A stretch of 64,000 nucleotides of DNA from the NCBI RefSeq assembly GCF_964204645.1, contig NC_134030.1:15686110-15750109 (forward strand), given 5' to 3'. The notes beneath the pieces were generated by a model, which did no database searches, had not been told where the DNA came from, and saw only the letters and a program-made list of their open reading frames with translations. Shown here one piece after another: positions 1,455-22,749 of this stretch. The position numbers were made by a program, and so were the translations under genes. Numbering within the stretch: the stretch's first letter is position 1; each line of letters starts with the position of its first letter. The stretch comes from Tubulanus polymorphus. Its lineage: Eukaryota > Animalia > Nemertea.

Positions 1455-1735
1455 GTGGTGATTTCAATTTAAGATGACACGTGGCCTCAGTAATTGGAAA
1501 TTGTGGCTTTCATACCAGAGGGCGAGAGGGCGAGACACCTCTCATCACAGCTAGGCACTAGCGAGAACGGTTATTAGCGCGTTTGCTATTACTGTAGTAC
1601 AGTGATTGCGAAAGCAACCATGCTCGGATAGATAGATGTAGCGAGGCTTGGACGAGAACGGTTGATTGCGTGTTTGTTATATACAAGGGGAAGTAATCCC
1701 CACTCATCACCACAAGTAATTTTTTTTTCTTATAA

Positions 1736-4700
1736 ATGGGAGAGAGTGAACAACACACAGAACAAATTGATGTTAATGAAAATCAATATTATTGTACATA
1801 TTGTAAAAAATACATTGATAAATCTCATAAAGCACGTCATGAAAAAACTGCAAATCATATAAAAAATGTTATAGATTTTGAAACTCCAGAAAATTCAAGT
1901 GAAAGAAAAGAACGATTAGATGATATGAAAAAAAACGAAATAAAATGTGAAGTTTGTAATGAATTTATAGTAAAACGGAATTATAAAAGACATCTCGAAT
2001 CACAAAGACACCATCATAATTTGAGTAATAATGTTTTAGGAATAGATTATTTCGATGATAAACCTCAACAAGTAAAAAAACCAACTTCAAAAACTAAATC
2101 CATTTCAAATAAACATTACATGGAAAATGTTAGAAATTATATCGATTCACTAGAAATAAGATACAATTAAAATTTTAGAAACATTACATAGTAAAATTGG
2201 TCCTGCAGCCATTATAATTTAGATTTTTTAAAGGTACAAAAATAGAAGATAATAGTAAATTTAATGAAATAATGGGAAAATATTAGATTTGATAACAGAT
2301 GTTGAATATCCAAAAATTAGCATCTCTGGAAAAGTAAGTCAGAAGAGAAAATGGATTATAATATTCAAACACTCTCTGAAGAAATAATTTCAAAAACACA
2401 AATAAAAGAGAAGTTAGAAAAAATATTTAATGAATTTAAACGTCATATTGAAGAAAGATATTTTGAGGGTTCTGGTTTAAGATTGAATGAAATTATATTT
2501 TTAGATTTAAATGTTTATAATACAAAAATGAATAAAACATCAAAAAGTAAAACAATGTTTAAAAATGATTCAAACTTTACTACAGAAAAGGATATTAAAG
2601 CATCAAGTTATATAAAATAACCATTTAGAACAAAAGCAGTAATAAATGTTCAAAATGAAGATAATACATGTTTTCTATGGTCAATTATTAGTTGCTTACA
2701 CCCAACAGAAGATATTACGCATAGATTTAGAATAACAAATTACCGGAAATATGAAACATTATATGAAATTGATCAATATCCAGTAACTATAAAGATGATT
2801 CCTAAAATAGAACAAGTTAATAATTTAAAAATAAATGTATTTGAATTAATGCAATTACCAAAGACAAAAGGTGAAAATATTAAAGATTATACATTAGAAG
2901 CTTTATATTTAACAGAATATTATGATGATGAAAATGCTATAGATTTGTTATATTACAAAAAAGATGAAAATGAACATTATATGTGGTTAAAACAAATTGA
3001 TTTATTCTTTAGAACAGAAAGTGATCATCATCGTAAAATTTATCTATGTAGAAAATGTTTTTCTAAATTTATGACTGAGAATACATTATTAAAACATAAA
3101 GAATTATGTGATAATAAAGATTTTTGTAAATTAATAATGCCAACTAAAAAAGATTGTAAGTTGAAATTTACTTATCATAAATTTAAGAATATTGTTCCAT
3201 TTGTAATTTATGGGGATTTTGAATCGTTGAATTAAGAATTAACTGATCAAGATAGAAAAGAAATATATAACAAAAAGCAATTTTTAAAATCAATGGATAA
3301 AGGAAATGAATTAAATGAAGACATAAATCAAGACCCACCAATCATAAACACAATTTAAAAAGTTCATCAAAGAGCTGCTGCTTATGGAATTTACATAAAA
3401 TCAAATTATCCCGAATTATATGAAAGTCAATATATTTCTTTTAGAGGTGAAAATGTAGTTAATGATTTTTGTAATAAAATAATTCAATTAGAAAGTGATT
3501 TTGCAGAATTATTAAACAAAAATAAAGGAATAGTTGTGACAAAAGAAGATGAAATTGATGTTAATCATGCAACTCATTGTTGTTATTGTGAAAAACGTTT
3601 TTATTCATTTGATAAAAAAGTTAGAGATCATGATCATTTAAATTCAAAATACCGCGGAGCTGCTCATGAAGATTGTAATTTACAAGCTAAGAAAGTTAAT
3701 TTCGTACCAATATTATTTCATAATTTATCAGGCTATGATACCCATCTATTTATAAAACAATTATCGGGAAAATTGGGCGCAATTAATCAAGATATAGAAG
3801 AATATAATGCTATGAATGGCGCAAATGTAAGAAAATATGATTTTAAACTATTAGCTAAGACATCTGAAAATTATATTTCATTTCATTTTGTTTGCATTTG
3901 ATTTTTGGATTCTTATAGATTTCTAGCAAGTTCATTAGATAATTTAGCAAAAGGTTTAGTTGATAATGATTTTATAATAACTCAACATTATTATCCAAAT
4001 GAACAAGATTTTGAATTATTGAGATATAAAGGCGCAATTCCTTATTCATTTTATAAAACGCATGATGATTTTAATGTAACAGAATTATCAAAAGAACAAT
4101 TTTATGATCAATTAAAAGAGGAGTATGTGAAAGATGAAGTGTTTAATAGAACATTAAATATTTGGAATCACTTTAAGATAAAAAATCATGGTAAATTAGT
4201 AGAATTATGTTTAAAATCAGATGTTATGATATTGGCTGATAAATTTAGAGAAGTTAATTTGAATCATTTTAATGTTGATCCTTGTTATTGTTATTCAAGT
4301 CCTGGTTTAACTTGGCAATGTGGTTTAAAATATACAAACGTAGAATTAGATTTATTAAAAGAACCAGACATGGCTTTATTATTTGAAAAATCAATTAGAG
4401 GTGGAATTAGTTTTAATTTAAGGCATACAGAAAAAGATTTAACTGAAGAAGTTAGAGATTTATTTGAAATATATAATCCATCAGATTATGTTTATGATTT
4501 ATCAACTGAAGATGGAACATTTAACTGTGGATTTCCATTAATAGCGGTCAATACTGACGCCTACATACTAAAAATCAAGACAAATGACATAACAAAAGAC
4601 TTAAAAACATTAAAAGATCATTTTGATTTCAGCAATTATCCCAAAGATCATGAACTATTTAGCAATGATAATAAAAAGATTCCTGGTAAGTTTAAAGATG

Positions 4701-5008
4701 AATTAGGGGGTGATGAAATGATTGAATTTGTTGGGATAAGAAGTAAAATGTATAGTTATAGAACAAAAGATCATGAAGCTAAAAAGTTAAAAGGAATAAC
4801 AAAACATGTGATTGATAAACATATAGAATTTCAAGATTATATAAAGTGTTTATATAACTCATTTGTAATGAAACATAAAATGAATTGTTTAAGATCAGAA
4901 GATTACGAGATGTACATTAATGAAGTTGAAAAAACTAGTTTAAATCCATTCGATGATAAAAGATATATTTTAGGTGATGGAATAAAAACATTACCTTATG
5001 GTTATTAA
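1736..5008 (+). pseudogene. polB: Protein-primed family B DNA polymerase, copy 1 (N-terminal Zn fingers, endonuclease VII-like domain, exonuclease; motifs A/B deleted)
   Basis: Fragments with VPFVIYGDFES, CCYCEK..VRDHDH..YRGAAH..CN, FHNLSGYD, DSYRFL, PGKFKDE, PFDDKRY; several stops and frameshifts. Confidence 0.92.
4412..4552 (+). other. C-terminal remnant of an intein (blocks F/G) at the pol-c site of pPolB copy 1
   Basis: YVYDLSTEDGTFNCGFPLIAVN|TD: block F VYDL, terminal Asn, +1 Thr of motif C. Absent from copy 2. Confidence 0.8.
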
Positions 5009-5071
5009 AACATAAAATCAAGATCATCATACTCGAAATCACTACTGGTTTCTTCATTTTTATTTAATTGT

Positions 5072-6314
5072 TTAGGTTCTTCCATTTAATTTTTTTTCAT
5101 TTAAATAAAGTTCTATATTGTACTTTATTTCATCTCGCTCTCTTTGTTTCTTTTTGTTTGTTAATTCATCAAATGGAATTATAATATCGATGTTTAAAAG
5201 ATTTACAATCTTATTTAAAAAGAATTCATAATTAATTGAATCTGTTATTCTATTATCCACATAATATCTTAATATTTTTTTGAATGTTTCTTTTATATTT
5301 TCCATATCTTCTTCTGTTAATTTAGGTTTTTTTTATAGTAATCGTTAAATAATAGATATAAATACATTTTCTTTTCTTGTGTGTTAAATGTTGACGGAAT
5401 AATTGTTTTTATTATATCTTTTTTAGTTATTTCACCATTTTTATTTTCTATCATTTTCATTTTTTCAAGCCATTGCTAATATTCTGGTGTATGATCTTCC
5501 ATAGAAAATATCTTTAAAATTTCATCTAGATATTTTAATTTTGGTTCTAAAGGAATATCTCTAGTTTTTTCATCACCCCATAAATTTTTTTTGCCATCCA
5601 CATTCATTAAAAAATAACACAGGACCTTCTTGGCTTAAGTGCCCATAAATACATTGTTTTTCTATCATATCTTGGTAATAGATCTTCATTAAGTTCTTGG
5701 TATTTACTTACGTTTTCTTTATGTTTTATTGTTCTATTATGTAGATTTAAATTACTTGGTGTAATAATCAATTTACAATATTTACAATAATATGTTTTTC
5801 TTACTAATTCATTATATTGTTTTTCCAACTTTTAAGTGTTTCTTCATTATCTGGTAACGTTTTCTCATATTTCATTTTTTCTAATATATTATTTTTTCTT
5901 TCATTGAATTCAGTTTCAAATTTATTAGAAATTTTATGTATATGTACTTTACGAAATTGAAGATTCTCCCAATCTTCTATATTTCCAGGGCTATATTTTA
6001 TTCGACAAGGCTCACAGAAATAATCTTTTATATTACCCTTATCATAGAATAAGAAAGGTCTTTTCCAAATAATTTCAGATTCAACTTCAACAGAATTACT
6101 ATTACTTTCATTACTATCAACATTAACCGTTGCGTCATTAATTTTACACTTCTCTAAATGTTTTTTAACATGATTTCTTGAGAATAATTTATTACAATTT
6201 GGGCAGTTTAGTTTAGGGGGCTTATAATTTTTATCATGTTTTTTTCATATGTCGAGCCATATTACTTTTTCTTAGAAGTTCACCACAAATTTCACATGGT
6301 ATCTTCTCATCCAT
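5072..6314 (-). pseudogene. Degraded zinc-finger-rich Polinton accessory gene(s)
   Basis: TAAATG start at 6314 (MDEKIPCEIC), later YCKYCK..NLHNRTIKH; broken by stops and frameshifts. Confidence 0.6.
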
Positions 6315-6383
6315 TTATTAAGGAAAAATTTTATTAAAATTAATTTTTAGTGATGAGAGGTAATATTTTTGTTCTATAAATAA

Positions 6384-6970
6384 TGGGTTGATTTAAAGAA
6401 TATAGAATATTTGTTGATTCTAGAAGACTTAAAAATTATAAATCACATAATTTATTAGTACAATTAGATAGAGAATTTAATAATTGTGTAGATTAAAAAT
6501 TAGTAAATATTAGTTTATGTAACTCATTTTACAATATATCGAATAAAACTGTTGAACATAGAGCCTTTTTAATTTTTAATAAAAATAAAAATGAATGGGC
6601 CTATATATATTTAAAACCAGGGTTATATATTTTAGATACATTGGCACAAGAAATTAATAGAAAAGCCTGGCACAAGTCAGGTAATAATTCCGGGTTTAAT
6701 ATTAGATTTTTAAAAAGTGAGAGTTCTAACAAAATAAAGGTAAGGTTGGCTGATATTGAAAATCATAAATTTATGGTAAAAAAACCTATAGCTAAACTGT
6801 TAGGAATTCCTCCAGATAGATCTTTTACAAATATGTTAAAGAATGTTAAAGAATTTGGAACGCAAATAAATTATAATTTAGCTGAGTGTGATTTCAAACC
6901 ATGCATTCCTAAATTTAATAATTTTAGATTAGAAATTAGAAATCATAATGGATACTTAATTGATTTATAT
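6384..6970 (+). pseudogene. Second, internally deleted copy of the minor capsid (penton-like) gene
   Basis: Near-duplicate of parts of 11235-11885 (IFVDSRR, LKPGLY, FGTQINYNL); fused at ~6970 to pPolB copy 2 sequence. Confidence 0.8.
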
Positions 6971-6974
6971 GAGC

Positions 6975-9900
6975 TCACAGTGATAAAAGATATTATAAAG
7001 AACATTTAAAATCTAAAAGTCATATTAGAAATAAGAATAATGATATTTTAGGTGAAGATTATTTTGATAAAGATAATGATAAGAAACAGAAGACAATTAA
7101 AAGCATAAAAAATAAATTAAACAATAAAAGACCATACATGGAAGATGTAAGAAAATATATTAATTTATTGGATAATAAAATAGATATAGAGCTAACCGAA
7201 GCATTTAAAAGTGATATTGGTCCAGCAGCTATTGAGTTTAAATTTCATAAAGGAAAAACATTAGAAGAAAATAAAAAACATTTAGAAAATATGAAAGAAA
7301 TAATAAAAATAATTACAGATGTTGAATATCCTAAAATTAGTATATCTTCTAAAGTAAAGTTTATAAAATCTGAAGATAAACCAATATATAATATAAATTC
7401 TCATTCACAACATATTATATCTAAACAACTTATAGATGATAAATTAGATAAATGTTATAATGAAGTAAAATCTAAAATAGAAGAGAAATATTTTGAAGGA
7501 TCTTGTTTTATATTTGATAAAATAATATTTATGACTTTACATGTTTATAACACAAAATGTAATAAGTTAACTAAATCAAAACCAATTGATGAAAATAATG
7601 TATCATATTATAAAGAACCAGATATTGAAGCATCGAGTTATATTAAACTACCATTTAAAACTAATGCTGTAATAAATGTACAAAATGAAGATGATAAATG
7701 TTTTCTATGGGCTATAATAAGTTGTTTACACCCAACAGAAGATATTACACATAGTTTTAGATTAACTCATTATAAACCATTTGAAAATAATTATAAGATA
7801 GATAAGTATCCTGTTAGAATTAAAAACATCCCAAAAATAGAAAGAGATAATAATTTAAGAATAAATGTATTTGATTTAATCAAATTACCAAATACAAAAG
7901 GTAACAATATAAAACATTATACATTAGAACCTTTATATCTATCAAAAGATTATGATTCAAACGATGTTATAGATATACTATATTATGAGAATCATTATAT
8001 GTGGATTAAACAAATAGATTTATTTTTTAAATCAGAAAATGATCACCATAAAATATATCTTTGTAGAAAATGTTTACATAAATTCAGTAATGAAAGTACA
8101 TTATTAAATCATAAACAATTATGTGAAAATCATGATTATTGTAAATTAGTTTTACCAAATGAAAAGGATAAAATATTAGAATTCAAAAAATATGATTACA
8201 AAAATAAAGTACCATTTGTTATATATGGAGATTTTGAATCATTCAATAAAGAATTAACTGATCAAGATAGAAAAGAAATATATTATAAAAGAAAGAAATT
8301 AAATTCTAATGAAAATGATTATTCTGAAGAACCACCAAAAACAAATACTATTAAAAAGATTCATCAATCAGCTGCAGCTTTCGGGTTATATATTAAATCT
8401 GATTATCCAGAACTAAAGTGAAAGAAGTGATTGAAAGTGAATATTATCATTATAGAAATGAAAATGTTATCAATCATTTTTGTGACTTATTAATTGAATA
8501 TGAAATAAGATTTAGTAAATTATTGAATACAAATATAGAAATTATAATGACAGAAGAAGATAAAGAAGGATTTGCGTTTGCAGATAAATGTTATTATTGT
8601 GAAAAGATATCTAATTTTAGAGATAAAAAAGTAAGAGACCATGATCATTTGAACGGAAAGTTTAGAGGCGCTGCACATTAGAATTGTAACTTACAAGCTA
8701 AGAAAATTAACTTTGTACCAGTTATATTTCATAATCTATCAGGATATGATGCACATTTATTCATCAAACAGTTATGTCATAAAATAGAAGAAATCAATAA
8801 TGAAATAGAAAGATTAAATTCAAATAGATCAAAAGATAAAATACCAACTTATAAATTTAGAATGTGAGCTAAAACATCTGAGAATTATATATCATTCCAA
8901 TTTGGTTGCCTAAGATTTATAGATTCATATAGATTTTTAAATAGTTCATTAGATAACTTATCAAAATCATTAGTTGATGATGAATTAAAAATATTAAAAG
9001 AATATTACCCAAATAATGATGATTTTCAATTAATGAGATATAAAGGCGCAATTCCATATTCTTTCTATAAAAATCATAATGATTTCAATATAACTGAATT
9101 ATTAAAAGAACAATTCTATGATGAATTAAAAAATGAATATGTTAAAGATGAAGTATATAATAGAACATTGAATATTTGGAATCATTTCAAAATAGAAAAT
9201 CATGGGCAATTAGTAGATTTATATTTAAAATCAGATGTGTTATTATTAACCGATATATTCGAAAGGTTTAGAGATGTAAACCTAAAATATTTTAATATTG
9301 ATCCTTGTCATTGTTATTCATCACCAGGTTTAACATGGGATTGTGGATTAAAATTTACAGATATAAAAATGGATTTGTTAACAAATATAGATCAATTACT
9401 ATTATTTGAAAAATCTATAAGAGGAGGAGTTTCAGGTGTATTAGGTGATAGATATTTCAATGTAAATGATAACCCTGGATATAAGTTATTATATATAGAT
9501 GCAAATAATTTGTGTGGTTGGGCAATGATGGAACCACAACCTTATGGAGTATTTGAATTAACTGAAGTTTTACAGAATGAAAATAATGATAAATTTGATT
9601 GGAAGACAAGAATTCTAGATATTGCAGATGATTCAGATACTGGTTACTTCTTTGTTGTAGATTTAGAATATCCTGAACATATTAAATTTAAATCTAGAAA
9701 TCTAGCATACTGCCCCGAACATAAAACTGTAACTCATGAAGAATTATCAAATTACCAAAAAAGAATTAAACCCGAAAATCATATTCATACAGAAAAGTTA
9801 ATGGTAACTCAGGAAAATAAATATAATTATGTAGTACATTATAGAATGTTAAAGTTTTATTTGAATCAAGGAATGATTCTAAAAAAAGTACATAGATATA

Positions 9901-10834
9901 TTTCATTTAGTCAATCTAAGTGGTTAGAAAAATATATAGATTTTAACACCAAACAGAGAACTGAAGCTAAAACTGATTTCGAGAAAGATTTCTTCAAGTT
10001 AATGAATAATGCATTCTATGGTAAGACTTGTGAAAATATTAGAAATAGAAATGATATTGAGTTAGTTAGTAATGGTAAAAGAATTAGACATTTACAAACA
10101 TATCCTAAGTTCATTGGTAACAGAATATTTGATGAAAATTTAGCCGCAGTTAAAATGAGAAGAACATCAATGAAATTTAATAAACCAATCTATGTTGGCG
10201 CTTCAGTTTTAGAATTATCAAAATTACTAATGTATGAATTCTATTATAATGTATTACAACCACTTTTTGGAGAAAAACATATAGAAATATTATATTTTGA
10301 TACTCACAGTTACGTATTAAAGATAAAAACTGATAACATAACTGATGATTTAAAAACATTAAAACATGATTTCAGTAATTATCCTAAAAATCAAGAATTG
10401 TTTTGCAATGATAATAAAAAAGTTCCTGGTAAATTCAAAGATGAATTAGGTGGTGAAGAAATGATTGAATTCATTGGTATTAGATGTAAAATGTATAAAA
10501 CTAAATATATAAAACTAAAGAACATGAAGCTAAAAAGTTAAAAGGAATAACCAAAAGTGTAGTAGAAAAGAATATTCATTTCAAAGATTACATAAATTGT
10601 ATATTCAATGAAGAAGTTAGAAAACATAAAATGAGATGTTTAAGATCTGAAGATCATGAAATGTTTATTGAAGAAATTTAAAAGATAAGTCTAAACCCAT
10701 TTGATGATAAAAGATATATTTTAGATGATGGAATTCATACAGTTGCTTATGGATGTAATTTAGATGGATACTTAAAATTTAAAAGAGAAGAAACAAAAGA
10801 GAACGACATAATGAAAAGAATTCTAACGTGTTAA
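6975..10834 (+). pseudogene. polB: Protein-primed family B DNA polymerase, copy 2 (near full length, disrupted)
   Basis: Motif A YIDANNL, motif B KLMNNAFYGK, motif C YFDTHS (catalytic D replaced by H), Exo and endo VII-like motifs; stops near 8681 and 8866 and frameshifts. Confidence 0.95.
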
Positions 10835-10863
10835 TCAAATTTTAATAAAAATATGTTATTAAA

Positions 10864-11217
10864 ATGGAGAGTAAACAAGCGCACAGTGAGAAAAACAAAT
10901 CATTTCTAGATAGAATAAAAGATACTACAAATGTAAAATCTGTAGATTATAAATTCAAAAAGTTAACAGAATTAACAATTCATAAGAAATATCTAATTAC
11001 AAATATTGATACAGTTACTAATAACTATGGAGATAAATTAGTTATACACTTAGAATATGAAGGATTAAAAGGAAATACATATAAATTCAGAACATATTTG
11101 CCGGATAGATTTCATAGATTATCAAGTGAAGATCTAGAAGAATTATGTTCTGGAGATTTCTATTTCGTATACAAAGGTAAGAATTAAAAAGGGCACCATG
11201 AAATAGATTTCGAATAA
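10864..11217 (+). pseudogene. Small Polinton protein, possibly OB-fold ssDNA-binding; in-frame stop at 11187
   Basis: FKKLTEL..KYLITNI..T.NYGDKLVIHL..YLPDRF pattern next to polB; the frame continues 9 codons past the stop. Confidence 0.5.
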
Positions 11218-11234
11218 GAAAATGTGTAAAGTAA

Positions 11235-11885
11235 ATGGTAGAATTAAAAGAATACAGAATATTTGTTGATTCTAGAAGACTTACAAATTATAAATCACAT
11301 AATTTAATAGTTCAATTAGATAGAGAATTTAAGAATTAAATGGTTTTTTTATATTTAAAACCAGGATTATATAATTTAGATACATTAGCACAAGAAATTA
11401 ATAGAAAAGCTCGAGCTAAATTAGGAAGTGATTCCGGATTTAGTATTAGAATTTTAAAAAGTGATAGTTCTAATGAAATAAAGATTAGGTTAGCTAATGA
11501 CGAACAATTTAAATTTACAGTAAGAAAACCTTTAGGTAAACTGTTAGGAATTAACCCAGATATTGTTACAGCATACGCAGAAGGTAGATCAAACTTAATA
11601 CCTTTTACACATTTTTATATTTATTGCAATTTAATTGACCCAACAAAAACATTTGAAGCAACTAAAGATACAATTTGTAATTCTAGTATATTAAATATTT
11701 TACCATTAAAAAATGTTAAACAATTTGGAACGCAAATAAATTATAATTTAGCTGAATGTGATTTTAAACCTTGTATTCCACATTTCAATAATTTTAAATT
11801 AGAAATAAGAAATCATAATGGTTATTTAATTGATTTGAATAATTTTCCTGTGATATATGAATTAGTTATAAGATGTAGAGAGTAA
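11235..11885 (+). pseudogene. Minor capsid protein (penton-like, single jelly roll) with a deletion at ~11338
   Basis: MVELKEYRIFVDSRR start at 11235, then PGLY, FYIYCNLI, ILNILPL, G.LIDLNNFPVIYELVI pattern typical of Polinton minor capsids. Confidence 0.75.
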
Positions 11886-11901
11886 TTTTTTCACTATATA
11901 A

Positions 11902-12261
11902 ATGAATATAACTGTTGGACCGAGTATATGTTTTGGGTTTGATTTTAAACGTGAGAAAGAAATGAAATTTAACGTTAATGATGTAATTACACATATTAAA
12001 AATATTGCATTTTCTAATGAAACAACATTTGAGTATAAAACAACAATAGATAAAGAAACTTTAAATGTAGAAAAGATTACTAATTTAATTAGAGAATCTT
12101 TAAGATTTTATGAATTAGATGAAGATTTTATCATCGATGATATTAAAAAAATATTAATTGAAATATATACAAATGAAACTAGTAATGAAATAAATGTTGA
12201 ATTAATCATAAATAAGATAACTAAATATTTTGATGATAGTAATTTTTTGATAAATAAATGA
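11902..12261 (+). CDS. Polinton hypothetical protein
   Basis: Intact ORF with TAAATG start in a tightly packed gene run. Confidence 0.7.
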   Translation: MNITVGPSICFGFDFKREKEMKFNVNDVITHIKNIAFSNETTFEYKTTIDKETLNVEKITNLIRESLRFYELDEDFIIDDIKKILIEIYTNETSNEINVELIINKITKYFDDSNFLINK

Positions 12262-12479
12262 GTGATAATAAGTGGATAATAACTGGATTATATAATGGAG
12301 CATTACTATCAGTTGGAACTGTTGGTTATTCAATGGTATTAAAAAAAGTATTTAAAATGGGAAGTGTTAATGTTGATAGATTTGATATAAATGATATTTT
12401 AAAGTTAACATTAGCAATTACTTTATCTAATTTAACTATTGATTATTTGGAAAAACAAAAATATATTCCTCCCATATAA
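12258..12479 (+). CDS. Small hydrophobic Polinton protein
   Basis: 73 aa, two hydrophobic segments, TAAATG start, overlaps the previous stop. Confidence 0.7.
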   Translation: MSDNKWIITGLYNGALLSVGTVGYSMVLKKVFKMGSVNVDRFDINDILKLTLAITLSNLTIDYLEKQKYIPPI

Positions 12480-12926
12480 ATGCGTAATTATTTTACTAAA
12501 CAAATGGCTTCTGCAATTATAACTATTATAGGATCGGCAATTGTTAACGCTTTGGCATTTACTGGTGGTGGATATTTATTTAAACATATTGATAAAAATA
12601 GTTCATTAGGAGAACAAAGAAGACATAACTTAGCGTTAGAGAAATACAATAAAGCTGCAGAAGAATATAGAGAAAAGAGACAAAACTATATGGATTACAT
12701 CAATAAAGAATTATATGATCAGAAGATTTCACATAGAGATTTTCAATCAGTTGATGATGCAATGAGTTTATATAACGCGGTAACCAATAAAGAAAAATTT
12801 CATCTATACAAACCTAAATTATCAGATTATTATACCCCAAGTAAAGAACAACAGAAATATGAAATAATATGGATTTTAGGTGGAACTGTTATTGTTATAT
12901 TTGTTGCTTATAAATTTACTAATTAG
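12480..12926 (+). CDS. Polinton membrane/coiled-coil protein
   Basis: N-terminal hydrophobic helix (IIGSAIVNALAFTGGGYLF), coiled coil, C-terminal TM segment. Confidence 0.75.
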   Translation: MRNYFTKQMASAIITIIGSAIVNALAFTGGGYLFKHIDKNSSLGEQRRHNLALEKYNKAAEEYREKRQNYMDYINKELYDQKISHRDFQSVDDAMSLYNAVTNKEKFHLYKPKLSDYYTPSKEQQKYEIIWILGGTVIVIFVAYKFTN

Positions 12927-12944
12927 TAATTTTTTTCTAAATAA

Positions 12945-13370
12945 ATGGAAGATAATATTGATATTATTCCTCATGATATAAATAAAACTAAATTAAAAAT
13001 ATATTTAGAAAAACAAATATTAGAATTTGAAAGTGACTTAAAAGTTAAAAAGAAAAAATATCTAAAAAGTAGAATTATATATTATTTGATTATAAGTGGT
13101 TCGGTTACAATTAGTTCTGTAATAACATTTCTAGCAATATTCAGTCCATTAACACCTTTAGCTATATCAATTGGTGTGTTAGGATTAAGTTCAAGTGTTT
13201 TAACTGGTATAAGTTCAAAATAAAATATAAAAAGTAATAAAGACAAAATTAAAACTAATATAAAAGAAATTAATAAATTAAAGAACACACTAGATTGTAT
13301 CATAAGTTTAAATGGTCATATAACAGTTGAAGAACAAGATAAATTATTAAAAGAATTAATAAATTATTAA
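12945..13370 (+). pseudogene. Two-TM Polinton membrane protein with in-frame stop at 13223
   Basis: Hydrophobic hairpin; the frame stays open for 48 more codons after the stop. Confidence 0.65.
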
Positions 13371-13386
13371 TTTTTTAATTATATAA

Positions 13387-14775
13387 ATGGTAGATAGTTT
13401 TCCAAAAGCTTTCCAATATAATAAATCAATTAAATATAATATTCCAGCAATAGATTTTAATAAAGATATTGCATATAGAAATGAAGTTTTAGATTCATTA
13501 ACTAATTTAGAAATTTATGTTACTGAAACTAATAATTTTAATGCAAAGATGGAAAATATATTTCATGTATATTTAATTAATTTTAAAAAATTGAAAGATG
13601 AAAAACAATGGTTATTAAAATCTAATATGAAGTATTGGCAGAACCAATTAAATTTTGCTGTTTATTGTGCAACAACAGGTTGTGGAATTAGTTGGAATGA
13701 TCATTTGAATAATTCTAAATATAAATTAATTCAAAGTTTATTTAGATTTCATACATACTTTCAAATAAGAATAATATTAAATGAATTAGAGTGCGCTTTA
13801 CCAGGATTTAGGTATTTTAAAGAATTAGATAATAATATTAATTTATCAAAGTTTTATAGAATTTGTAATGAATTTAATATAGATATAAATAATTCTGATT
13901 TTAGAACAAAAATTGGAACAATAAGATCACTTCCTTGCCCTAAAAAGATTGCAGAATATTGTGCACTTCCCATACCATCTTATAGTTTTTATAATATCTA
14001 TAGTAATAAATTAGGTTATGGTAAAATAGAAACTAAGGATTTAGAAACATTAAATTTCAATAAATTACCGACATTTTATGATAATTTAAAACAAGAAAAC
14101 AATAATGGTTGGGTTTATTTCATTTTAGAAAATAATGAAGATTTTACAAAATCAGGTATACAAAGAATAAATCAATCTATTAGAACTTATTTGATATGTA
14201 TTCTAGGTGCACAAGTTGAAACAAGATCACCGATAATTGGAAATTTGAATACATCATTCGATACACAAAAACAATTTAAAGTTTTATTTGAAGATTCCAT
14301 ACATAATGATAAAAATAGATCGATTCCAGAAAACATTGTAAGATATCAAAATTATTTAGATAAATCACATATTAGATTAAATTATTGTATAGGCCCTAAT
14401 CTATTAATTATTTCTAATGATTTAGTATTAAAGATGGGAAATATAATTGGTTATAATAATCTAATTTAAACTGCAACAATAAATAATTCATTTGGATTGA
14501 ATGATATAAATAAAAAGATTATCACTGCTCCAAAATTAATGGAAGGTGAAAAAAATAAAAAACACATTCAATCAACTGAAACTAAAACTAATAATATTTA
14601 ATTAAATAATGATTCTAAAATAAAAGATTACAATACATCAGAAAATATTAAAACTGATAATATTCAACATGATATAATTAAAACTAATGATGATAATAAA
14701 TCCCATGAAAATGCTAAATTAGCTTTAACTTGTATAGGAATTGTAATCGGAGGAATATTATATTTTAAATTTTAA
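13387..14775 (+). pseudogene. Polinton protein of unknown function, probable C-terminal TM; premature stop at 14469
   Basis: 360 aa ORF (YWQNQLNFAVYCATTGCGIS), followed in frame by a tail ending in a hydrophobic segment. Confidence 0.65.
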
Positions 14776-14791
14776 TTTTTTTATTATGTAA

Positions 14792-16241
14792 ATGGATGTA
14801 GAAGGTGGAGAAGATATTGGAATGGATAATTTTGATGAACCTGGCATAACTGATGAACAACAACCTGAATTTAGTGAAACAAGTTTTAATGATGGTAATG
14901 AGCCAGAATATAATAATAATTTGAATATGCCTGATTATATTAAAAATGCAGAATCACAATTAAATCCTGAAAATTTAGACCCAGATTTAGTAACACAAGA
15001 TTTAGATAATTTAAACAAAATACCTAAATTAGAAGATTTAATTGAAAAATCTAAACTTAACATAAATGAAGACGTTGGACTTTTAGCAGATCAATTAAAA
15101 TTTTTAGATAATGGTAAATGTTATTATCGTTTGAAAGGTGATTATTATATTGATATCACTTATAAAAATAATAAAAAAAATATTAGCGGAATCAACTTTG
15201 AAAAGTTTAAAACCAGATAAAATTAAAATAATAAGTAATAGTAATGAAATAACTGATGTTACACAAAAAGAAATAGATGATAATATAGACGTATTTAAAC
15301 AAAGAATTAATGAATTATTTGAAATAATCAAAAAGAAATCAGAAACAGAAACAACTTCTGAACAGAATATAACTTCCAAAAATAGTAAACTTAAATCAAA
15401 TAAAGTTCCAATTGAAAACTTTTACCGAATGGATTACTTGATGCAACCGATCAAGAATTAGAAGATTTAGATATATTTTCTGATAAAGCAATTAGAGAAA
15501 CTATAAGTATAAGACTTGCATCTGATAAAATTGCGCATGATAAAAGTATAAGAGATTTTAAAATTAGAACTTTAGAAAAAGAATAAACTGATAAAAATAA
15601 AGAAATAGAACAATTAAAGTCTGATGTAGATCATCAAGTAATTGATGAAATAGAATATAGGCAAAAAGAATTACGTTTAGAAAAAGAAATTGATGATTTA
15701 GAATATAACATAGAATTACAAAAAGAAGAAATTAAATTATTATTAAAATCATATGATTATAATATTAATAGATTAAAAGTTATTTTTAAAGATTTGTTGT
15801 GAAAAACCAAATTCTGACATATCATTGAAAGATAGAATAAAATTGTTATTTAAATTAGAAGGAATAACAATTCTTTCAATTCTAACAGCTGTAACTATGT
15901 TATTCACAACAATTGGTTTAGCTATATCAAATGCTTTGAAATCTACTCCTACTCCCAATAAACCAGATAAACCCCCAGGTAATAATTCTATACAAGATAA
16001 AGTTAAAGATGGTTTAAAGAAATTAGCAAAATATTTATGGGAACTATCTAAAAAATCTGCTGCAGCTTTACCAGGAATTATTGCATCAATTGTTGGTTTT
16101 ATATTGACATCTGCAGGTAATATTCTTAACTTTGCTGCTGAACATATTATTTCATTTTTAATTACAGTTGTAAGTGCTATTATTTTTGGGTTAGTGAATA
16201 TGATATCAAAAAGATATCAAGAAAAAAATAATAAAAAATAA
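14792..16241 (+). pseudogene. Long acidic/coiled-coil Polinton protein with C-terminal TM helices, frameshifted
   Basis: Consecutive fragments 14792-15220, 15138-15461, 15825-16241 sharing one TAAATG start. Confidence 0.65.
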
Positions 16242-16266
16242 ATAATTAATTTTTTTTGTTAAATAA

Positions 16267-17514
16267 ATGAGTGGGAGTTATATAAGTCCTTCTAAGATTT
16301 CTAGAATATCTAATGCTATTAAAGCAGAAAGATCACATCATATAATTACTCATAATCCTTCAAATATTAATCCTGATGAAACTTTATATGTTAGAATTCC
16401 TAGATTAACACAAAATACTTTTTATGTTCCAAATAGTATTTATTTATCAGCTGATATAAAAGTAACTGGCCATGATAACAATTATGTTGTTGATAATGTT
16501 GGAAGGTATTTGATTAAAAAGTTAACAATAAAGATTGGTCCAGAAACAGTTTTCTCATTAGATGATTATAATTTATTTATGCATTATAAAGATTTATGGT
16601 TAACTATAGAAAATAGAAATAATATGATATTTCAGGGTATTCAATCGGAAAACCATAATAAATTAAGATCAGGAGCTAATGACGCAATAGTAACTCGTGC
16701 CACAGATAATTTGATTAAAAAGATTTATGGAAGCAAATATAAAATTCCATTAGACTTTGAATTGATAAATAATAATGCACCTTTATATAAATACGCAATT
16801 CGAGAAGATATTATATTTGAGATAACATTTGCTCCTGTAAATGAAATTGTATTATCTAGCGTTGTTAAAGATATGGGTTATACATTATCGAATATATGTT
16901 TAGAATATGACACAGTAACTAATGAAAATATTGCTAGCACAATTCAAACTCAATACAATCAAGGATTTTCATTATTATATGGTTATATTGATAAATTTAA
17001 AACTGTAACTATTAATGCAAATGATGAAATTATTAATGAGAATATTAACTTCCCAAGAAGATCTATTAAAGGTATATTAATATTTTTTACCATTGCAACA
17101 TATTCTAATGGCGCAATAAAGGTTGATAATTATTATAATCCTGAAATAACAAAAGTAGAAATAACTATCGAAGGAATAGCAAATAAAATATTTTGTCAAG
17201 GAATGAGAATGATTGATCAGTGGACAGAAATTAGAAAACATTTTATGAATGAAAAAGTAAAATCATTTGAAAATTGTAATATTGATCAAATTGATTATTA
17301 TACCGGTAATAAATATGCATTATGGTTAGATTTTAGAACAACAGAGGATAATTCATTACATGGTTCTGGAAAAAAATTACAGAACACTAAAGATGGAATA
17401 CAATTATTCGTGACAAAGAATAAAGGAAGCCTAAATTTCAAAATGCATATTTATATTATATCTGACGCGCAATTAAATATTGTAAATTCTCAATTAAATA
17501 GTGTTATGTATTAG
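16267..17514 (+). CDS. Major capsid protein (double jelly roll, Polinton type), intact
   Basis: 415 aa, beta-rich; size and position fit a Polinton MCP; NVGRYLIKKLTIKIG, KYKIPLDF, KYALWLDFR segments. Confidence 0.8.
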   Translation: MSGSYISPSKISRISNAIKAERSHHIITHNPSNINPDETLYVRIPRLTQNTFYVPNSIYLSADIKVTGHDNNYVVDNVGRYLIKKLTIKIGPETVFSLDDYNLFMHYKDLWLTIENRNNMIFQGIQSENHNKLRSGANDAIVTRATDNLIKKIYGSKYKIPLDFELINNNAPLYKYAIREDIIFEITFAPVNEIVLSSVVKDMGYTLSNICLEYDTVTNENIASTIQTQYNQGFSLLYGYIDKFKTVTINANDEIINENINFPRRSIKGILIFFTIATYSNGAIKVDNYYNPEITKVEITIEGIANKIFCQGMRMIDQWTEIRKHFMNEKVKSFENCNIDQIDYYTGNKYALWLDFRTTEDNSLHGSGKKLQNTKDGIQLFVTKNKGSLNFKMHIYIISDAQLNIVNSQLNSVMY

Positions 17515-17546
17515 AATTTTAACTTTAATAAAAATATATATAATAA

Positions 17547-18682
17547 ATGGAAGGTGGAATATATGAAATACAAACTCCAAGTGAAATGATATCAGATATA
17601 TATTATACATTACCTTATGATGAATACATGAAGTATTTTGGAAATTACTTTAATCAATTCAAATATAGAATAAGTAAAATAAAAGATAATATTGAAACTA
17701 AAATAGAAGATAAGAATGATATTGAATATAAAATAGAAGATGATATTGAATATAAAATAGAAGATAGTAATAATATGGAAACTAAAATAGAAGATGTAAC
17801 AGCATCTACATCTTATAATATACCCTCTACATATGATATTGAATCAAAAAAGATTATTATAATCCAAAATATTGTGATGTATGTAAGAAATATATATCAT
17901 ATAAAAATTGGGCATCACATAAGAAATCAAAGAAACATATAGAAAAAGAAAAGAATAATAATGATAATAATATATCAGTTAGTAATATAAAAGATAATGT
18001 TAACCCAATTGAAACTAATGATACCATAGATAATATAACAGATAATGTAATAAATAATGTTAACCCAATCGAAACTAATGATAATGATATAACAAATAAT
18101 GAAATAATTGATGATTCTAAAAAACATTGTAACATTTGTAATTTAGATATTTCTAAAAGTAATTGTTCTAAACATAAAAAATCTAAGGGGCACATAGAAA
18201 ATGAAAAAGAATTAATATGTGATTATTGTAATAAAGAAATTGAACCTGTTGATAAAATTACTCATTATAAATCAAAATTACATCTAATTAATGTTTATAA
18301 AAAAGTGGGTATGTTACCATTGTTAGATGAACCAAAGAAATATATCAAATATTTTAATCCTGAAACTAAAGAATATCATATATTCTTTAAGTTGTTATTT
18401 GATAAATTATTAGCTTATGCAGAAGATAATCCTGACCAAATATATAAATTAGCGTATAATGGACACCTAGATTTATTTAATTTATTAAATGATTTTGAAT
18501 TTGATTTTGATGGTGATAATTCTAATGATTACTTTGAAAAATTAAGAGTAAAAGCTGGATTAAGTGATGATGAACGTAGAATGAAGGATGAAATAGAATT
18601 AATAAATATGCCAAAGACTTTTGATGAATTTGATATAAACAAAGATGATTTTATAAATGTATTAGAAACAAAATTAGAATAA
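17547..18682 (+). pseudogene. Low-complexity multi-zinc-finger Polinton protein, frameshifted
   Basis: IE(T/Y)KIED repeats; C-x2-C...H-x5-H fingers across ~17860-18290. Confidence 0.6.
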
Positions 18683-18726
18683 TTATTATAAAACTATTTA
18701 TATATCTATAAAAATATTTATATATC

Positions 18727-18984
18727 TATGCACTAGACGTATGAGTATGAAAGTAAGAACCCAAGAATCCTTGCCAAGAAATATAAATTATAAACATAAA
18801 TTATAAACATAAATTATAAACATAAATTATAAACATAGTTTTAATATATAATTTATTCATTATTATACATTTCATTTAATAATTCATATTTCTATGGACT
18901 AGACGTACGTTAGAATCCAAGATTCTTGCCAAGAAAGAAAAAAGGTAAGAATCTTACTTTCTTACTCGTACGTCTAGTACATAG
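18727..18984. repeat. ~33 bp inverted repeat plus short AT tandem repeat between convergent gene blocks
   Basis: CTATGCACTAGACGTATGAGTATGAAAGTAAGA versus its reverse complement at ~18951-18984; third partial copy at ~18891; ATAAATTATAAAC x4. Confidence 0.75.
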
Positions 18985-18994
18985 AAATATAAAT

Positions 18995-19630
18995 TAGTTT
19001 CTATAATATTCCAAATTATAAATAGTTATTTTATAAATTTATATTCATAGGGAAATTGAAGTCTCAGTAATAATTTTGAACCTTTATTATTCTTTAATTT
19101 ATTCATATATTCATCATAATTCAGTAGGTATAATTTGATTTTCTTCCAATGATTGTTGCATAGATTTTCTATCTTTGTTATAAAATAAAACTAGAAATCT
19201 TATATTCTCCCTAAAGTCTTTAACAATTGAATTATATTTTTGATTTAAAACCCATGTTGTTATCCCAAAATGTCTCCCAGAGAAAGCTAAGTAACTCACT
19301 TTCTCTCACTTTTGAATCATGTAAATTTGCGCAATCATCTACAATGAATAATGTATTTGATCCTTTATAAGTATCAATTGCTATTTTAATACAATTATCT
19401 AAATTTTCTTTTACTGTTTTAGGATCTGATATAATAAACTTTTTCATCTTAACTATATCTCTATTGTATGTTTTATTCATTTCATAAGTAGGACAGAATA
19501 ATATTATATTATCAAAATGATTCTTATAAATAATTTCTAACAAATCTAATATGAAATGTGTTTTACCACAGTTTGTTACTCCAGTAACTAACATATTATG
19601 AGGTTCAAATATAAATAAATCTTTATTCAT
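18995..19630 (-). pseudogene. FtsK/A32-like genome packaging ATPase, frameshifted
   Basis: Walker A GVTNCGKT, Walker B FIVDD, GRHFGITTWVLNQ motif in the second frame. Confidence 0.9.
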
Positions 19631-20714
19631 TTATTCTTTTAATTTTACTAGATAAAATCCATTCATTAAATTTATCATCGTATCCTTTATATTTCACCAA
19701 AGAATACTTTTTTCCTTTAAGAGTTTTTGTTTTCAATACTTTTTCTATTTTGTATTCTATTTCATCTGGATTTGGTACAAGTGATAATTCTTGTTCATAG
19801 AAATAACCTAATATTTCTTCATCTTTTAGATCTTCTAGTTTATAAACAAAAGGTTTAGTAAATATTATCTTTTTAATCTTAAATATTTCTTCAGTAAAAT
19901 TTGGGGTATAACCTTTATAAAAGGTTTTTCTATATTTAGATATTCTGACGTGTTGTCCAATTTTGAATCTAGGTTCACCGAAATCATGTGTAACAAACGC
20001 TCCATATAGATTATTCCAAACTATTTCCGAATTATCTTCTTTTCTAGCTTGTATAGGTTTCATATTTATAGAACTATGTTTAGAATTATTATAACCTTTC
20101 ACTAAATCATCTAATACATCGATATAAATATATGTTTCATTAGCAGTAAAATATTTCCACATTCTAGTTTTCAATGTTTTATTAAATCTTTCTATAATAG
20201 ATGCTTTTTTATCTGAGTGTGTTGAAAAATAATCTACATCGTTATCAGATAATAGTTTTTTGAAATGTTTGTTATAAAATTCCTTACCTTCATCAAATTG
20301 TATCTTATCTGGAATAGCTTCTTTAAATATAGATTTAAAAGCATTTGTCACTTCTATACCAGTTCTATTTTTGATTGGAATTGACCATGCGTATCGACTG
20401 AATATGTCTATAACATTCAGTATCCAGAAATATCCTTTGTTGTATTCTTCTAAGTTCTTCATGTCAATTAAATCTGCTTGCCATTGTTGATCGATATATG
20501 AAACCATAACTTTTCTTGTTAAATAAGTTTTATCCATTTTCTTGTGAATTCGATATGTTGGTTGATTTTGTAACAATGATTTCAATTCACTATATTTTAT
20601 ATTACCATTTTCATTATCAGATTTAATTTCATTCCATAATTCTGAAACGTTAGAATATGATACTTCACTTTCTGGGTTATAATATAAATCTCTTAAATAT
20701 TGTTCTTTTTTCAT
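19623..20714 (-). CDS. Retroviral-like (rve) integrase with C-terminal chromodomain, intact
   Basis: WQADLIDM, IDIFSRYAW, QFDEGKEF, KASIIERFNKTLK (DDE); chromo YKIEKVL..LVKYKGY..NEW. Confidence 0.95.
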   Translation of the reverse strand: MKKEQYLRDLYYNPESEVSYSNVSELWNEIKSDNENGNIKYSELKSLLQNQPTYRIHKKMDKTYLTRKVMVSYIDQQWQADLIDMKNLEEYNKGYFWILNVIDIFSRYAWSIPIKNRTGIEVTNAFKSIFKEAIPDKIQFDEGKEFYNKHFKKLLSDNDVDYFSTHSDKKASIIERFNKTLKTRMWKYFTANETYIYIDVLDDLVKGYNNSKHSSINMKPIQARKEDNSEIVWNNLYGAFVTHDFGEPRFKIGQHVRISKYRKTFYKGYTPNFTEEIFKIKKIIFTKPFVYKLEDLKDEEILGYFYEQELSLVPNPDEIEYKIEKVLKTKTLKGKKYSLVKYKGYDDKFNEWILSSKIKRINE

Positions 20715-20719
20715 CTTCT

Positions 20720-21090
20720 TTTAATCCATTAATAATAATCTTGGGTTATTTTCAATGGTTTTAGGATTTGACTTATTTTCTGGTATAATAGGTTTATTGT
20801 CATTGGAATCATCTTTATCATTAGATTTGAATTTTGATTTATATATTACACCGGATAATATAATAACTGTTACTAATCCAATTGTAATATATAATTTATA
20901 ATTGCTTCCAGCATTAGAAGAATCAGATGGATTATTATTTGAATCAATATCAGATAAAGTCTGTGATTCATTTATATCAGTTAATTTCTTTTTCTTAGCT
21001 TTTTTTTAATTCTGAAGATCTTTTACCTAATTCTCTTGCCCATTTAATTTGTTTCTCGGATCTAGCCTTTTTCTTAACTCCATCACTCAT
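20720..21090 (-). pseudogene. Small Polinton protein with a TM segment, frameshifted
   Basis: TAAATG start at 21090, basic N-terminus, LYITIGLVTVIIISGVI; boundaries approximate. Confidence 0.5.
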
Positions 21091-21691
21091 TTATTTTAGT
21101 TAATTTTTGTTCTGATTCATTTTCTGTTTCGACGTTTGGTTGTAGTACAGCGTCATCTGTTTCGTTCTTACCTGATTTATATTCCATAGGCTTGATGTTC
21201 GAAAATGTTATGACACCAGTAGAAATTAATGTCATAACCGATCCTAATTGAAATGAAGCATATCCAACCCATTTTTGTAATTCAGTCATAACTAAGTAGT
21301 CATTTTTCAAATCACTATATAATTTATTTTCATCATCAATTGGTATTAACTGGTTACATAACTTAGAATAACATTTGACAATACCATCTGAAATAGAATC
21401 ATTTATTCGGGATAATCTTGCCTCTTCATAAATCTTAAAATATTCTATTACTTTATCTGGTTTCATAACATCTAATTCTTGAAAAGTAATAGTCTTAGTT
21501 AAAAACTCTTTAGTTTTTCCACCGGCAATCAATAGTTCTAGATGATGCTCACAATATAAATAGTATTCATAATCTATATTACAATTAACTTGAGCACAAT
21601 TAGTTACAACTGTATCTTTATTATCACTTATACTCAAATCATCTAATGTCTTTTCAATATCAATACTATTCTTATTAGATTTCTTTGACAT
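21083..21691 (-). CDS. Polinton hypothetical protein
   Basis: Intact 202 aa ORF with TAAATG start. Confidence 0.7.
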   Translation of the reverse strand: MSKKSNKNSIDIEKTLDDLSISDNKDTVVTNCAQVNCNIDYEYYLYCEHHLELLIAGGKTKEFLTKTITFQELDVMKPDKVIEYFKIYEEARLSRINDSISDGIVKCYSKLCNQLIPIDDENKLYSDLKNDYLVMTELQKWVGYASFQLGSVMTLISTGVITFSNIKPMEYKSGKNETDDAVLQPNVETENESEQKLTKINE

Positions 21692-21940
21692 TTATATTAG
21701 AGAAAAAAAGCAAACAAATATTATAAGTATTCTTCAAATGATACTAGCTAGTTAAAGCTAAAGAATTATAGTATTGACTACTGATACTAGCTATTTGAAT
21801 TTAAAGAATTTCTATTTGAATCTATTCAAAATATAAAGTATTCTCTTTTTGAAAAGAAAATATTAAAAATATAATAGAATTCACTAGCTAGTTGAAGTTA
21901 TTGTTTTTTTAGGAGCAGTAATTATAACTGTCCAGATAAG

Positions 21941-22621
21941 TCATTTCGGATCCTTGATATCAAATTCCTCAACGTATTGTTCATTATTTGGATCATTGTT
22001 CCATTGATCAATAAATTTCTTTGCCTTTGTTAACTGTTCTAAATATAACTGTAAATCTAGTTTATTAGATTTAATTATGTTTTCCTTCTTTTCTAAAGGT
22101 CTTAGATTCTTCCAATTCCAAATAAGTTTTTTATTGTATTCATCATTCATGTTAAATTTAGAAATCGGCAACACGTGATCAATATGGTAATAATCCCCAT
22201 AATTATCTATATTCATTTTATCATCGAATTGAAATATAATCCATGATTTGAGAAATTCATCTGAACAACCCAATAGATTAGATAGTGTTTCTGAATGTGT
22301 TTCTTTGTTGAATAATTGTGTTAATCTAGATCTTAAGCATTGTTTCAATCTAAAATTAAGATCTGTTTGATATCTTTCTCTCATAAATTCTGTCATATAA
22401 TCATTATAAGCTTCTCTATTATCTTCTCGGTATTGTTTGGTATATAGTTTAAAACAAGTTTTACAGCAATATTGAAAACCACCTTTGCTAATCTTACGCT
22501 TACTAAATTCTGTTAAAGCTAATTTATCTAATTCACATTTAGAACACTTCTTGTAATATATATTTATAACACCACCAGTGTTATTTGTAATATTGATAGT
22601 TTGTGGTTGTTCTGGTTCCAT
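21941..22621 (-). CDS. HNH-family endonuclease with N-terminal Cys4 zinc finger, intact
   Basis: CSKC..EF..CKTC; YHIDHVLP..WKNLRPL..ENIIKSNK, a pattern seen in NCLDV and phage HNH proteins. Confidence 0.75.
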   Translation of the reverse strand: MEPEQPQTINITNNTGGVINIYYKKCSKCELDKLALTEFSKRKISKGGFQYCCKTCFKLYTKQYREDNREAYNDYMTEFMRERYQTDLNFRLKQCLRSRLTQLFNKETHSETLSNLLGCSDEFLKSWIIFQFDDKMNIDNYGDYYHIDHVLPISKFNMNDEYNKKLIWNWKNLRPLEKKENIIKSNKLDLQLYLEQLTKAKKFIDQWNNDPNNEQYVEEFDIKDPK

Positions 22622-22749
22622 TTATTATACGTATTTTTTTTTACTAATTACTTGGTTAATAATTTTAGAATCCTCTTCCATTTCTTCGACCAACGTCATC
22701 CTTTTTCATTGCTCGCTGCTTTCGATAAGTTAGTTTCGATTCCTTGATA

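Follow-up and report, generated by a model that had tools for sequence, protein, structure and literature searches.

Poxvirus-type promoters on the genes of an endogenous Polinton of Tubulanus polymorphus suggest transcription by a helper virus

RESULTS

TAAATG at the gene starts of a nemertean Polinton

We analyzed a 64,000-nucleotide stretch of the genome of the nemertean Tubulanus polymorphus (RefSeq assembly GCF_964204645.1, contig NC_134030.1, positions 15,686,110 to 15,750,109 of the forward strand), hereafter the window. Positions 1500 to 23500 of the window are an endogenous, multicopy, broken composite Polinton. Most genes of this element start within the hexamer TAAATG, with a T- or A-rich core at a fixed distance upstream, an arrangement that resembles the late and intermediate promoters of poxviruses. 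The Polinton genes are probably transcribed by the RNA polymerase of a pox-type helper in a provirophage-like life; a helper-dependent lifestyle is what we infer from the promoter sequences.

An earlier observation of TAAATG at Polinton gene starts, made from the letters of the window, is confirmed. All 15 TAAATG and both TAAAATG sites listed in that original prediction lie at the coordinates and on the strands claimed, and the statement that the motif sits on nearly every Polinton gene holds: 14 of 18 homology-checked starts carry TAAATG, compared with 43 of 839 other ATGs and with 0 of 25 starts of open reading frames (ORFs) in the remainder of the window. The prediction had proposed an enrichment test against internal ATGs. 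Run blind to the motif on the first ATG of non-nested ORFs of ≥60 amino acids in positions 1690 to 22700, it gives 13/25 starts versus 43/839 (Fisher P = 2.5e-10); set against the upstream TAA frequency, the same 13/25 gives P = 2.5e-9. The four starts without TAAATG belong to the integrase, the first (truncated) copy of a probable minor capsid gene, the gene at 10864 (TAAAATG), and the gene at 12504 (a near-match). Two of the listed sites are not Polinton gene starts. The one at 12480 is a chance stop-start junction, the orthologues starting at the Met at 12504, and the one at 49375 lies 26 kb beyond the element in an unrelated small ORF. The surroundings of 49375 hold two small AT-rich ORFs (48625 to 49384 on the reverse strand, containing the TAAAATG, and 50124 to 50527), which have no Pfam match and lie by an inverted repeat of ∼400 bp.

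A core and an initiator at fixed spacing

A position matrix was built from 83 TAAATG starts and compared with 152 internal TAAATG. T peaks at position −12 from the ATG (82% of starts versus 30% of internal TAAATG) and is raised from −15 to −12; A is found at −18 to −16 and at −4 (81%), and G follows the ATG at +4 in 67% of TAAATG starts versus 20% of internal ones. The T-runs upstream of many starts had originally been taken for transcription terminators, a role that their placement does not bear out. They end 8 to 11 nucleotides (nt) before the ATG in 18/27 co-oriented cases, and their position varies with a standard deviation of 5.9 nt from the downstream ATG versus 36 nt from the upstream stop. 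Moreover, T-runs precede 24/35 starts that have no co-oriented upstream gene, and T5 is present at just 15/51 gene ends that no start follows. Because the distance to the ATG is fixed and the runs occur without an upstream neighbor, we regard them as promoter cores and not as terminators.

The type of core is kept among orthologues: the capsid gene has a T-core in 5/5 cases and the ATPase an A-rich core in 4/4. Most genes of the virion module likewise have T-cores, and A-cores followed by T stand before the probable minor capsid gene, the ATPase, and the zinc-finger genes. Between the window and the related locus L003, two small genes differ in core type. In vaccinia virus late promoters, according to published descriptions, TAAATG spans the start codon and the tenth base upstream is a conserved T (PMC11980589); its intermediate promoters have an A-rich core and then T (PMC11980589, PMC5294985). 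In the Polintons, T peaks 9 bases before the initiator T and so agrees with vaccinia virus within one base; this comparison, and that with African swine fever virus (ASFV) below, was made with published motif descriptions and not with a computed matrix. Judged by sequence, the two-part signal matches the poxvirus postreplicative promoter, with a TAAAT(G) initiator on the ATG and a T-rich core at fixed spacing.

Conservation of TAAATG across related loci

Capsid-based searches yielded 83 related loci, which were binned on capsid identity alone, blind to the motif. TAAATG was found at 30/33 starts in the bin with 70 to 80% identity, 26/35 at 49 to 60%, 6/93 at 41 to 48%, and 24/183 at 26 to 40%; loci with a capsid protein ≥49% identical account for 56/68. 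In the window clade (13 loci including the window, after removal of the near-duplicates L002, L010, L012, and L014), TAA precedes 64/87 starts and TAG or TGA precedes none, and the corresponding null for TAA, taken from the first ATG in short non-genes, is 116/1785. The motif stands at 19/24 starts in seven distant loci selected as positive and at 1/161 in 22 selected as negative; both sets were chosen after the identity-bin counts had been seen, and shared ancestry means that P values are overstated. TAAATG is present on both strands in 8/10 back-to-back gene pairs with a positive gap, a count from which three more pairs, overlapping and probably miscalled, were left out.

Could AT-richness, stop-start coupling, and an A-rich context for translation produce these hexamers with no promoter at all? 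The element has ∼23% GC overall and densely packed genes, both of which favor such an origin, and site 12480 is a true stop-start junction. However, among GC-matched loci, TAAATG occupies 20/26 versus 1/25 starts at 25 to 34% GC and 23/30 versus 0/54 at 34 to 45% GC in positive and negative loci, labels that were set post hoc. The TAA before the start is the stop of the upstream gene in just 3/83 cases, and TAG or TGA precedes 0/111 starts in motif-positive loci. An A-rich translation context is also at odds with T at −3 in 73/86 motif-positive starts; motif-negative elements have A or G there in 130/166. Thus, AT content and stop-start coupling fail to explain TAAATG, and the enrichment beyond them that the original prediction depended on is borne out by the GC-matched contrast, the few upstream stops, and the missing TAG and TGA. 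We consider an origin without a promoter highly improbable and already refuted as far as sequence can refute it.

A TATA initiator in sister lineages

Two relatives with 47 to 49% GC, L017 and L019, are without TAAATG. Instead, TATA lies within 20 nt of 9/16 and 10/13 of their starts (background, 24/383 and 14/317, respectively), behind an AA(A/T)TTTC core and 4 to 19 nt before the ATG (median, 8; n = 19). The pattern was first spotted by eye in these two loci and counted afterwards; L016 (3/3), L020 (5/5), and L053 (3/10) agree with it. For ASFV, late promoters with a TATA initiator and a median 9-nt leader are described (PMC7163114), as they are for pacmanvirus (PMC11788076). From its sequence and position, the TATA of L017 and L019 is too near the ATG for a TATA box of RNA polymerase II (Pol II) and matches the ASFV late promoter. 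This asfarvirus type was not found in the window clade, which has TAAATG on the ATG instead, so that the suggestion of an asfarvirus as helper of the T. polymorphus Polinton is not upheld.

A capsid tree was inferred for the window together with 33 loci, the 83 having been pruned of near-duplicates and short matches. The window falls within an 11-row clade in which all rows are TAAATG (support, 100/98), and L017 and L019 group with the TAAATG rows L037 and L040 (96/90) and L033 (96/92). On this tree the TAAATG label requires 3 to 4 changes, at least 2 of them forced by well-supported branches. The GC-rich loci L026, L049, and L050 have neither motif. Endogenous mavirus-like elements are described as having lineage-specific promoter motifs that vary by helper (bioRxiv 2025.10.09.676808), to which we liken the lineage-specific switch in Polintons.

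In AT-rich Polintons of the other capsid clade (L023, L024, L028, L036, and L082), starts are often T(A)3-5-ATG, some behind a T-run; this could be a third promoter type or mere A-rich translation context.

Cargo genes and candidate helpers

The C-terminal piece of the broken gene 6314-5072 matches Pox_VLTF3 (PF04947) with an E value of 3.8e-5, below the Pfam cutoff. The same piece scores 0.95 against the Atlas VLTF3 clusters, with 30/30 matches in the VLTF3 set; its model is poor, the best fold match being a bat poxvirus late factor (weak E value of 0.37), and no solved structure matched. The intact orthologues P0293 and P0294 have CxxC pairs upstream of the domain. This gene probably encodes a VLTF3-like late factor. 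VLTF-like genes are reported in some related viruses (PMC8502044). A zinc-ribbon gene in a distant TAAATG-type element (L037:4141-4746) has a weak Atlas likeness to VLTF3 (0.85 to 0.86) and no Pfam match. VLTF3 or nuclease cargo was tried as a marker of TAAATG elements and rejected as not discriminating.

Of two further features that had been thought to fit a viral helper, one, an intein, is not there: both PolB copies have an endonuclease-VII-type insert, neither has a Hint/intein Pfam match or an HN[CST] end motif, and the PolB of the intact relative L070 has endonuclease VII alone. Nuclease inserts are described in some Polinton polymerases (PMC10748475). The other, an HNH gene of the kind found in nucleocytoplasmic large DNA viruses, is real and has giant-virus homologues (PHROG 1035, E value of 7e-16), the sole virus-named one being "putative nuclease [Niemeyer virus]" (37%), from a mimivirus. 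Two TAAATG-type Polintons have deoxynucleoside kinase cargo (L003:10340-10981 and L007:2898-3380), too unlike to cluster together, and a homologue search with the L003 kinase returned no virus-named close relative. Scans of the window and of 24 of the 33 gene clusters from motif-positive loci, which are fragments, revealed no RNA polymerase subunit; therefore, the polymerase must come from outside.

That source might be a helper other than a poxvirus relative, either a large DNA virus whose promoters are unmapped or a pGKL-like cytoplasmic linear element with a pox-derived polymerase. The mimivirus homologue of the HNH gene and the kinase without a virus-named relative point in this direction, as does the TAAAN initiator of the yeast elements (PMC6211774). 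In a viral contig collection (viral_contigs), neither the capsid protein nor the VLTF3-like protein had a relative, and the bipartite promoter pattern gave 9 single matches, 8 of them in loci with ≤1 TAAATG start. One region of a giant-virus bin (L087, with topoisomerase II and Rpb5) has one exact match and TAAATG at 3/8 starts. However, this bin (G001) has no genome-wide TAAATG excess (296 versus 346 in the control) and was rejected as a helper type. The yeast elements are described as requiring an ATNTGA box 20 to 40 nt upstream (PMC6211774), and our matrix has no such peak; the reviewed motifs of mimivirus, Cafeteria roenbergensis virus (CroV), iridovirus, and asfarvirus also differ (PMC5294985). 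Such a helper is therefore quite unlikely, and a pox-type polymerase remains the explanation we prefer.

State and copy number of the element

The element has the protein-primed PolB, rve integrase, A32 ATPase, and double-jelly-roll capsid protein by which Mavericks/Polintons are recognized. An adenovirus-type cysteine protease, a trait of Maverick/Polinton group 1, was not found among the window ORFs or the scanned gene clusters; group 2 elements are described as variable in gene content (bioRxiv 2026.06.19.733378). Homologues of the capsid protein include one named from the clam Mactra (38% identity), which, like the flanking retroelements, points to an animal host. Foldseek matches include the capsid proteins of PBCV-1 (Paramecium bursaria chlorella virus 1), iridovirus, and mavirus, with E values down to 6e-17. 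As originally noted, the genes are more AT-rich than their neighbors (21 to 27% GC versus 30 to 55% in the remainder of the window), and the claim that they are intronless fits the unbroken orthologous ORFs in L001 and L003.

The copy in the window is a composite of two subfamilies, in which an A piece, made up of PolB, the reverse-strand zinc-finger gene, and part of the probable minor capsid gene, is joined to a B copy whose PolB 5′ end is gone. Genomic reads labeled with this species (run X7; 1934 Mb read) include 737 with loose ends at 6978 and 65 that bridge 6834 and 11590. Most of copy B is covered ∼400 to 850 deep by reads mainly 90 to 99% identical; such depth implies that copies of the family are numerous, about a hundred or more for an assumed genome size of 0.3 to 2 Gb. 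At 1500 to 1745, the reads show sister copies whose tandem repeats vary and contain the promoter core before PolB, with a depth peak at 1710 to 1743. No terminal inverted repeat or target-site duplication was found in the window, where the copy is a truncated composite. Features of the element are listed in Table 1.

TABLE 1 Features of the T. polymorphus Polinton in the window
Feature	Position	Strand	Remarks
Subterminal repeat region, subfamily-A copy	1500..1735		Ends in T-core/TAAATG promoter of PolB-A; multicopy by read depth and joints; without matching terminal inverted repeat in window
Protein-primed PolB copy A	1736..5008	+	Stops and frameshifts; N-terminal zinc finger, endonuclease-VII insert; TAAATG start
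Broken zinc-finger gene with C-terminal probable VLTF3-like domain (5075-5332)	5072..6314	-	N-terminal zinc fingers; TAAATG start, A/T core
First copy, truncated, of conserved ∼250-amino-acid gene (probable minor capsid protein, putative)	6383..7009	+	Start is a near-match to the motif
Protein-primed PolB copy B	6978..10834	+	5′-truncated, broken; endonuclease-VII insert (PF02945); PF03175, E value of 3.6e-12; loose read ends at 6978
107-amino-acid gene	10864..11187	+	TAAAATG start, A-rich core
Second copy of probable minor capsid gene	11235..11885	+	Internal deletion; TAAATG start, A-rich core
Six conserved virion-module genes, several broken	11902..16241	+	Starts 11902, 12258, 12504, 12945, 13387, 14792; T-core and TAAATG at all except 12504 (near-match)
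Major capsid protein, double jelly roll, intact	16267..17514	+	T-core and TAAATG; AlphaFold pLDDT 84
Zinc-finger gene, frameshifted	17547..18682	+	A-core and TAAATG
A32-like packaging ATPase, frameshifted	19026..19630	-	PF04665, E value of 3.3e-6; A-core and TAAATG
rve integrase with chromodomain, open	19623..20714	-	PF00665, E value of 1.1e-9; TAAATG missing in this copy, present in L001 orthologue
Two conserved genes	20721..21691	-	Starts 21090 and 21691, both TAAATG
HNH/endonuclease-VII-type nuclease, of a kind also in giant viruses	21941..22621	-	PHROG 1035, E value of 7e-16; A-core and TAAATG
Tandem ∼115-bp repeats, right end, multicopy, probable subterminal region	22720..23450

Other elements lie downstream of the Polinton. 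A long terminal repeat retrotransposon, which we take from its motifs to be of the BEL/Pao type, occupies 25338 to 32221; its ∼300-bp repeats at 25338 and 31922 are identical, as in a recent insertion. On the reverse strand, 37055 to 42418 is an open frame of 1787 amino acids, transposase-like by eye, with a C-terminal PHD finger and no other Pfam match. Nested inverted repeats of ∼1.7 kb at 60088 to 61804 are probably a fold-back element or one like a miniature inverted-repeat transposable element.

DISCUSSION

Of the original proposal that a pox-late-type initiator implies transcription by a helper, the core has come through each of the sequence tests and has gained from the spacing of the signal, its conservation, the TATA switch in sister lineages, and the probable VLTF3-like gene, and the intein, the terminators, the site at 49375, and the asfarvirus helper have fallen away. 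If this proposal is right, the signal at the gene starts, a T- or A-rich core ∼12 to 17 nt upstream followed by TAAATG, would be read by the RNA polymerase of a coinfecting cytoplasmic virus of pox type. Initiation would take place at the AAA of TAAATG, and slippage would add a nontemplated poly(A) leader to give an mRNA of the form (A)n-AUG-G. T at −3 is a poor Kozak base; in this slippage model that T would not be transcribed, which would explain its combination with G at +4. An initiator lying over the ATG would likewise give a usable mRNA if the polymerase slipped on AAA and so added an A leader. Both pox and yeast-plasmid polymerases are described as slipping at TAAAT or TAAAN initiators (PMC6211774). 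The A-core genes (zinc-finger genes and ATPase) would behave as intermediate-like and the T-core genes (capsid and virion module) as late-like; the VLTF3-like protein may tune or capture the late machinery of the helper, and integrated copies would stay largely silent until a helper infects the cell.

Several observations weigh against helper transcription. No helper virus or transcript was observed, no search aimed at a helper in this host having been made, and the motif is short and AT-rich. The labels positive, negative, and TATA were set post hoc, and related loci are not independent. The integrase start of this copy lacks TAAATG. Tight back-to-back spacing had to be rejected as evidence, gap lengths being alike in motif-negative elements (P = 0.15). 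The intact orthologues P0293 and P0294 have no PF04947 match, and shallow profile comparisons of them with other VLTF3 proteins were blank. VLTF3-like genes are present also in the TAAATG-negative L017 and L019, and VLTF3 occurs in viruses that use host Pol II. Finally, polintovirus genes are expressed in corals with no helper reported, which counts against a general rule (PMC11131425).

The coral observation also favors an autonomous nuclear program, in which the element's own VLTF3-like and zinc-finger proteins would direct host Pol II to compact promoters that leave almost no leader, and the likeness to poxvirus promoters would reflect a common ancestry of late-transcription signals and not the use of a helper. 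The probable VLTF3-like gene in the element and its sisters accords with this, as does the integrase, with which the element reaches the nucleus. On the other hand, an initiator on the start codon would leave a leader of 2 to 3 nt unless the polymerase slips, a trait described for pox and yeast-plasmid polymerases (PMC6211774), and a core-initiator spacing of ∼10 nt is too short for canonical TBP-TFIIB-Pol II, an argument made for ASFV (PMC7163114). A nuclear program also leaves unexplained why the two initiator types found match the two known orders of Pokkesviricetes. We regard it as unlikely, although somewhat less so than a non-pox helper, and continue to favor transcription by a pox-type helper polymerase.

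Promoter mimicry is known in protist virophages. Like mavirus and the endogenous mavirus-like elements of Cafeteria (provirophages), whose lineages are described as differing in GC and motif (bioRxiv 2025.10.09.676808), the Polinton is a small integrated virus that encodes a capsid and has a single helper-type late promoter in common across its genes. Unlike mavirus, it is found in an animal, its capsid is of the Polinton and not the virophage lineage, and its motif is of pox and not CroV type.

The yeast virus-like elements pGKL1 and pGKL2 are not known to have a capsid or an integrase. They resemble the Polinton in their protein-primed PolB and in a TAAAN initiator, which a pox-related polymerase reads, and they differ from it in encoding that polymerase on a partner plasmid and in having the ATNTGA upstream box (PMC6211774). 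With vaccinia virus the Polinton shares TAAATG on the start codon, a T-rich core peak 9 to 10 nt upstream of the initiator T, and a second class with an A-rich core and then T (as described in PMC11980589 and PMC5294985). Here, unlike in vaccinia virus, such promoters lie on a 20-kb integrated element in which no RNA polymerase is seen, and their function is predicted.

The closest relatives are Mavericks/Polintons (Polintoviricetes, "adintoviruses"; PMC8502044, PMC10748475), with the same protein-primed PolB, chromodomain rve integrase, A32 ATPase, double-jelly-roll capsid, and many integrated copies. This copy differs from them in its pox-type promoters and probable VLTF3-like gene and in that no cysteine protease, terminal inverted repeats, or target-site duplication were found. 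The word "promoter" does not occur in the main texts of those two papers. Polinton-like viruses have been found in entomopoxvirus occlusion bodies (Barth et al. 2024, PMC11296320); they and the present element are alike as Polinton-like elements linked to poxviruses in animals, here through promoters only. The text of PMC11296320 accessible to our search gave no match for promoter, motif, or TAAAT, and its supplements could bear on the claim. A literature search found no title or abstract describing pox- or asfar-type promoters in animal Polintons, most subscription journals and supplements being outside its coverage. New in this work are the analysis of core spacing, the survey of the clade, the switch to an asfar-type initiator, and the probable VLTF3-like gene.

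It has long been open how animal Polintons achieve expression of their genes and whether they should count as viruses, transposons, or virophages; with a helper-type promoter on nearly all genes, the question becomes testable. Promoter type would also be a simple way of sorting Polintons by their likely helper, and it predicts pox-like viruses in animal groups from which we know of none. Extending the argument, a whole branch of animal Polintons might be virophages of Pokkesviricetes that carry the late promoter of their helper and have switched between TAAATG and TATA initiators on changing helper, an idea suggested by the promoter sequences that we hold tentatively, at a little less than an even chance. 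If so, these promoters would record undiscovered pox- and asfar-like viruses of aquatic invertebrates, and the elements may act as an inherited antiviral defense.

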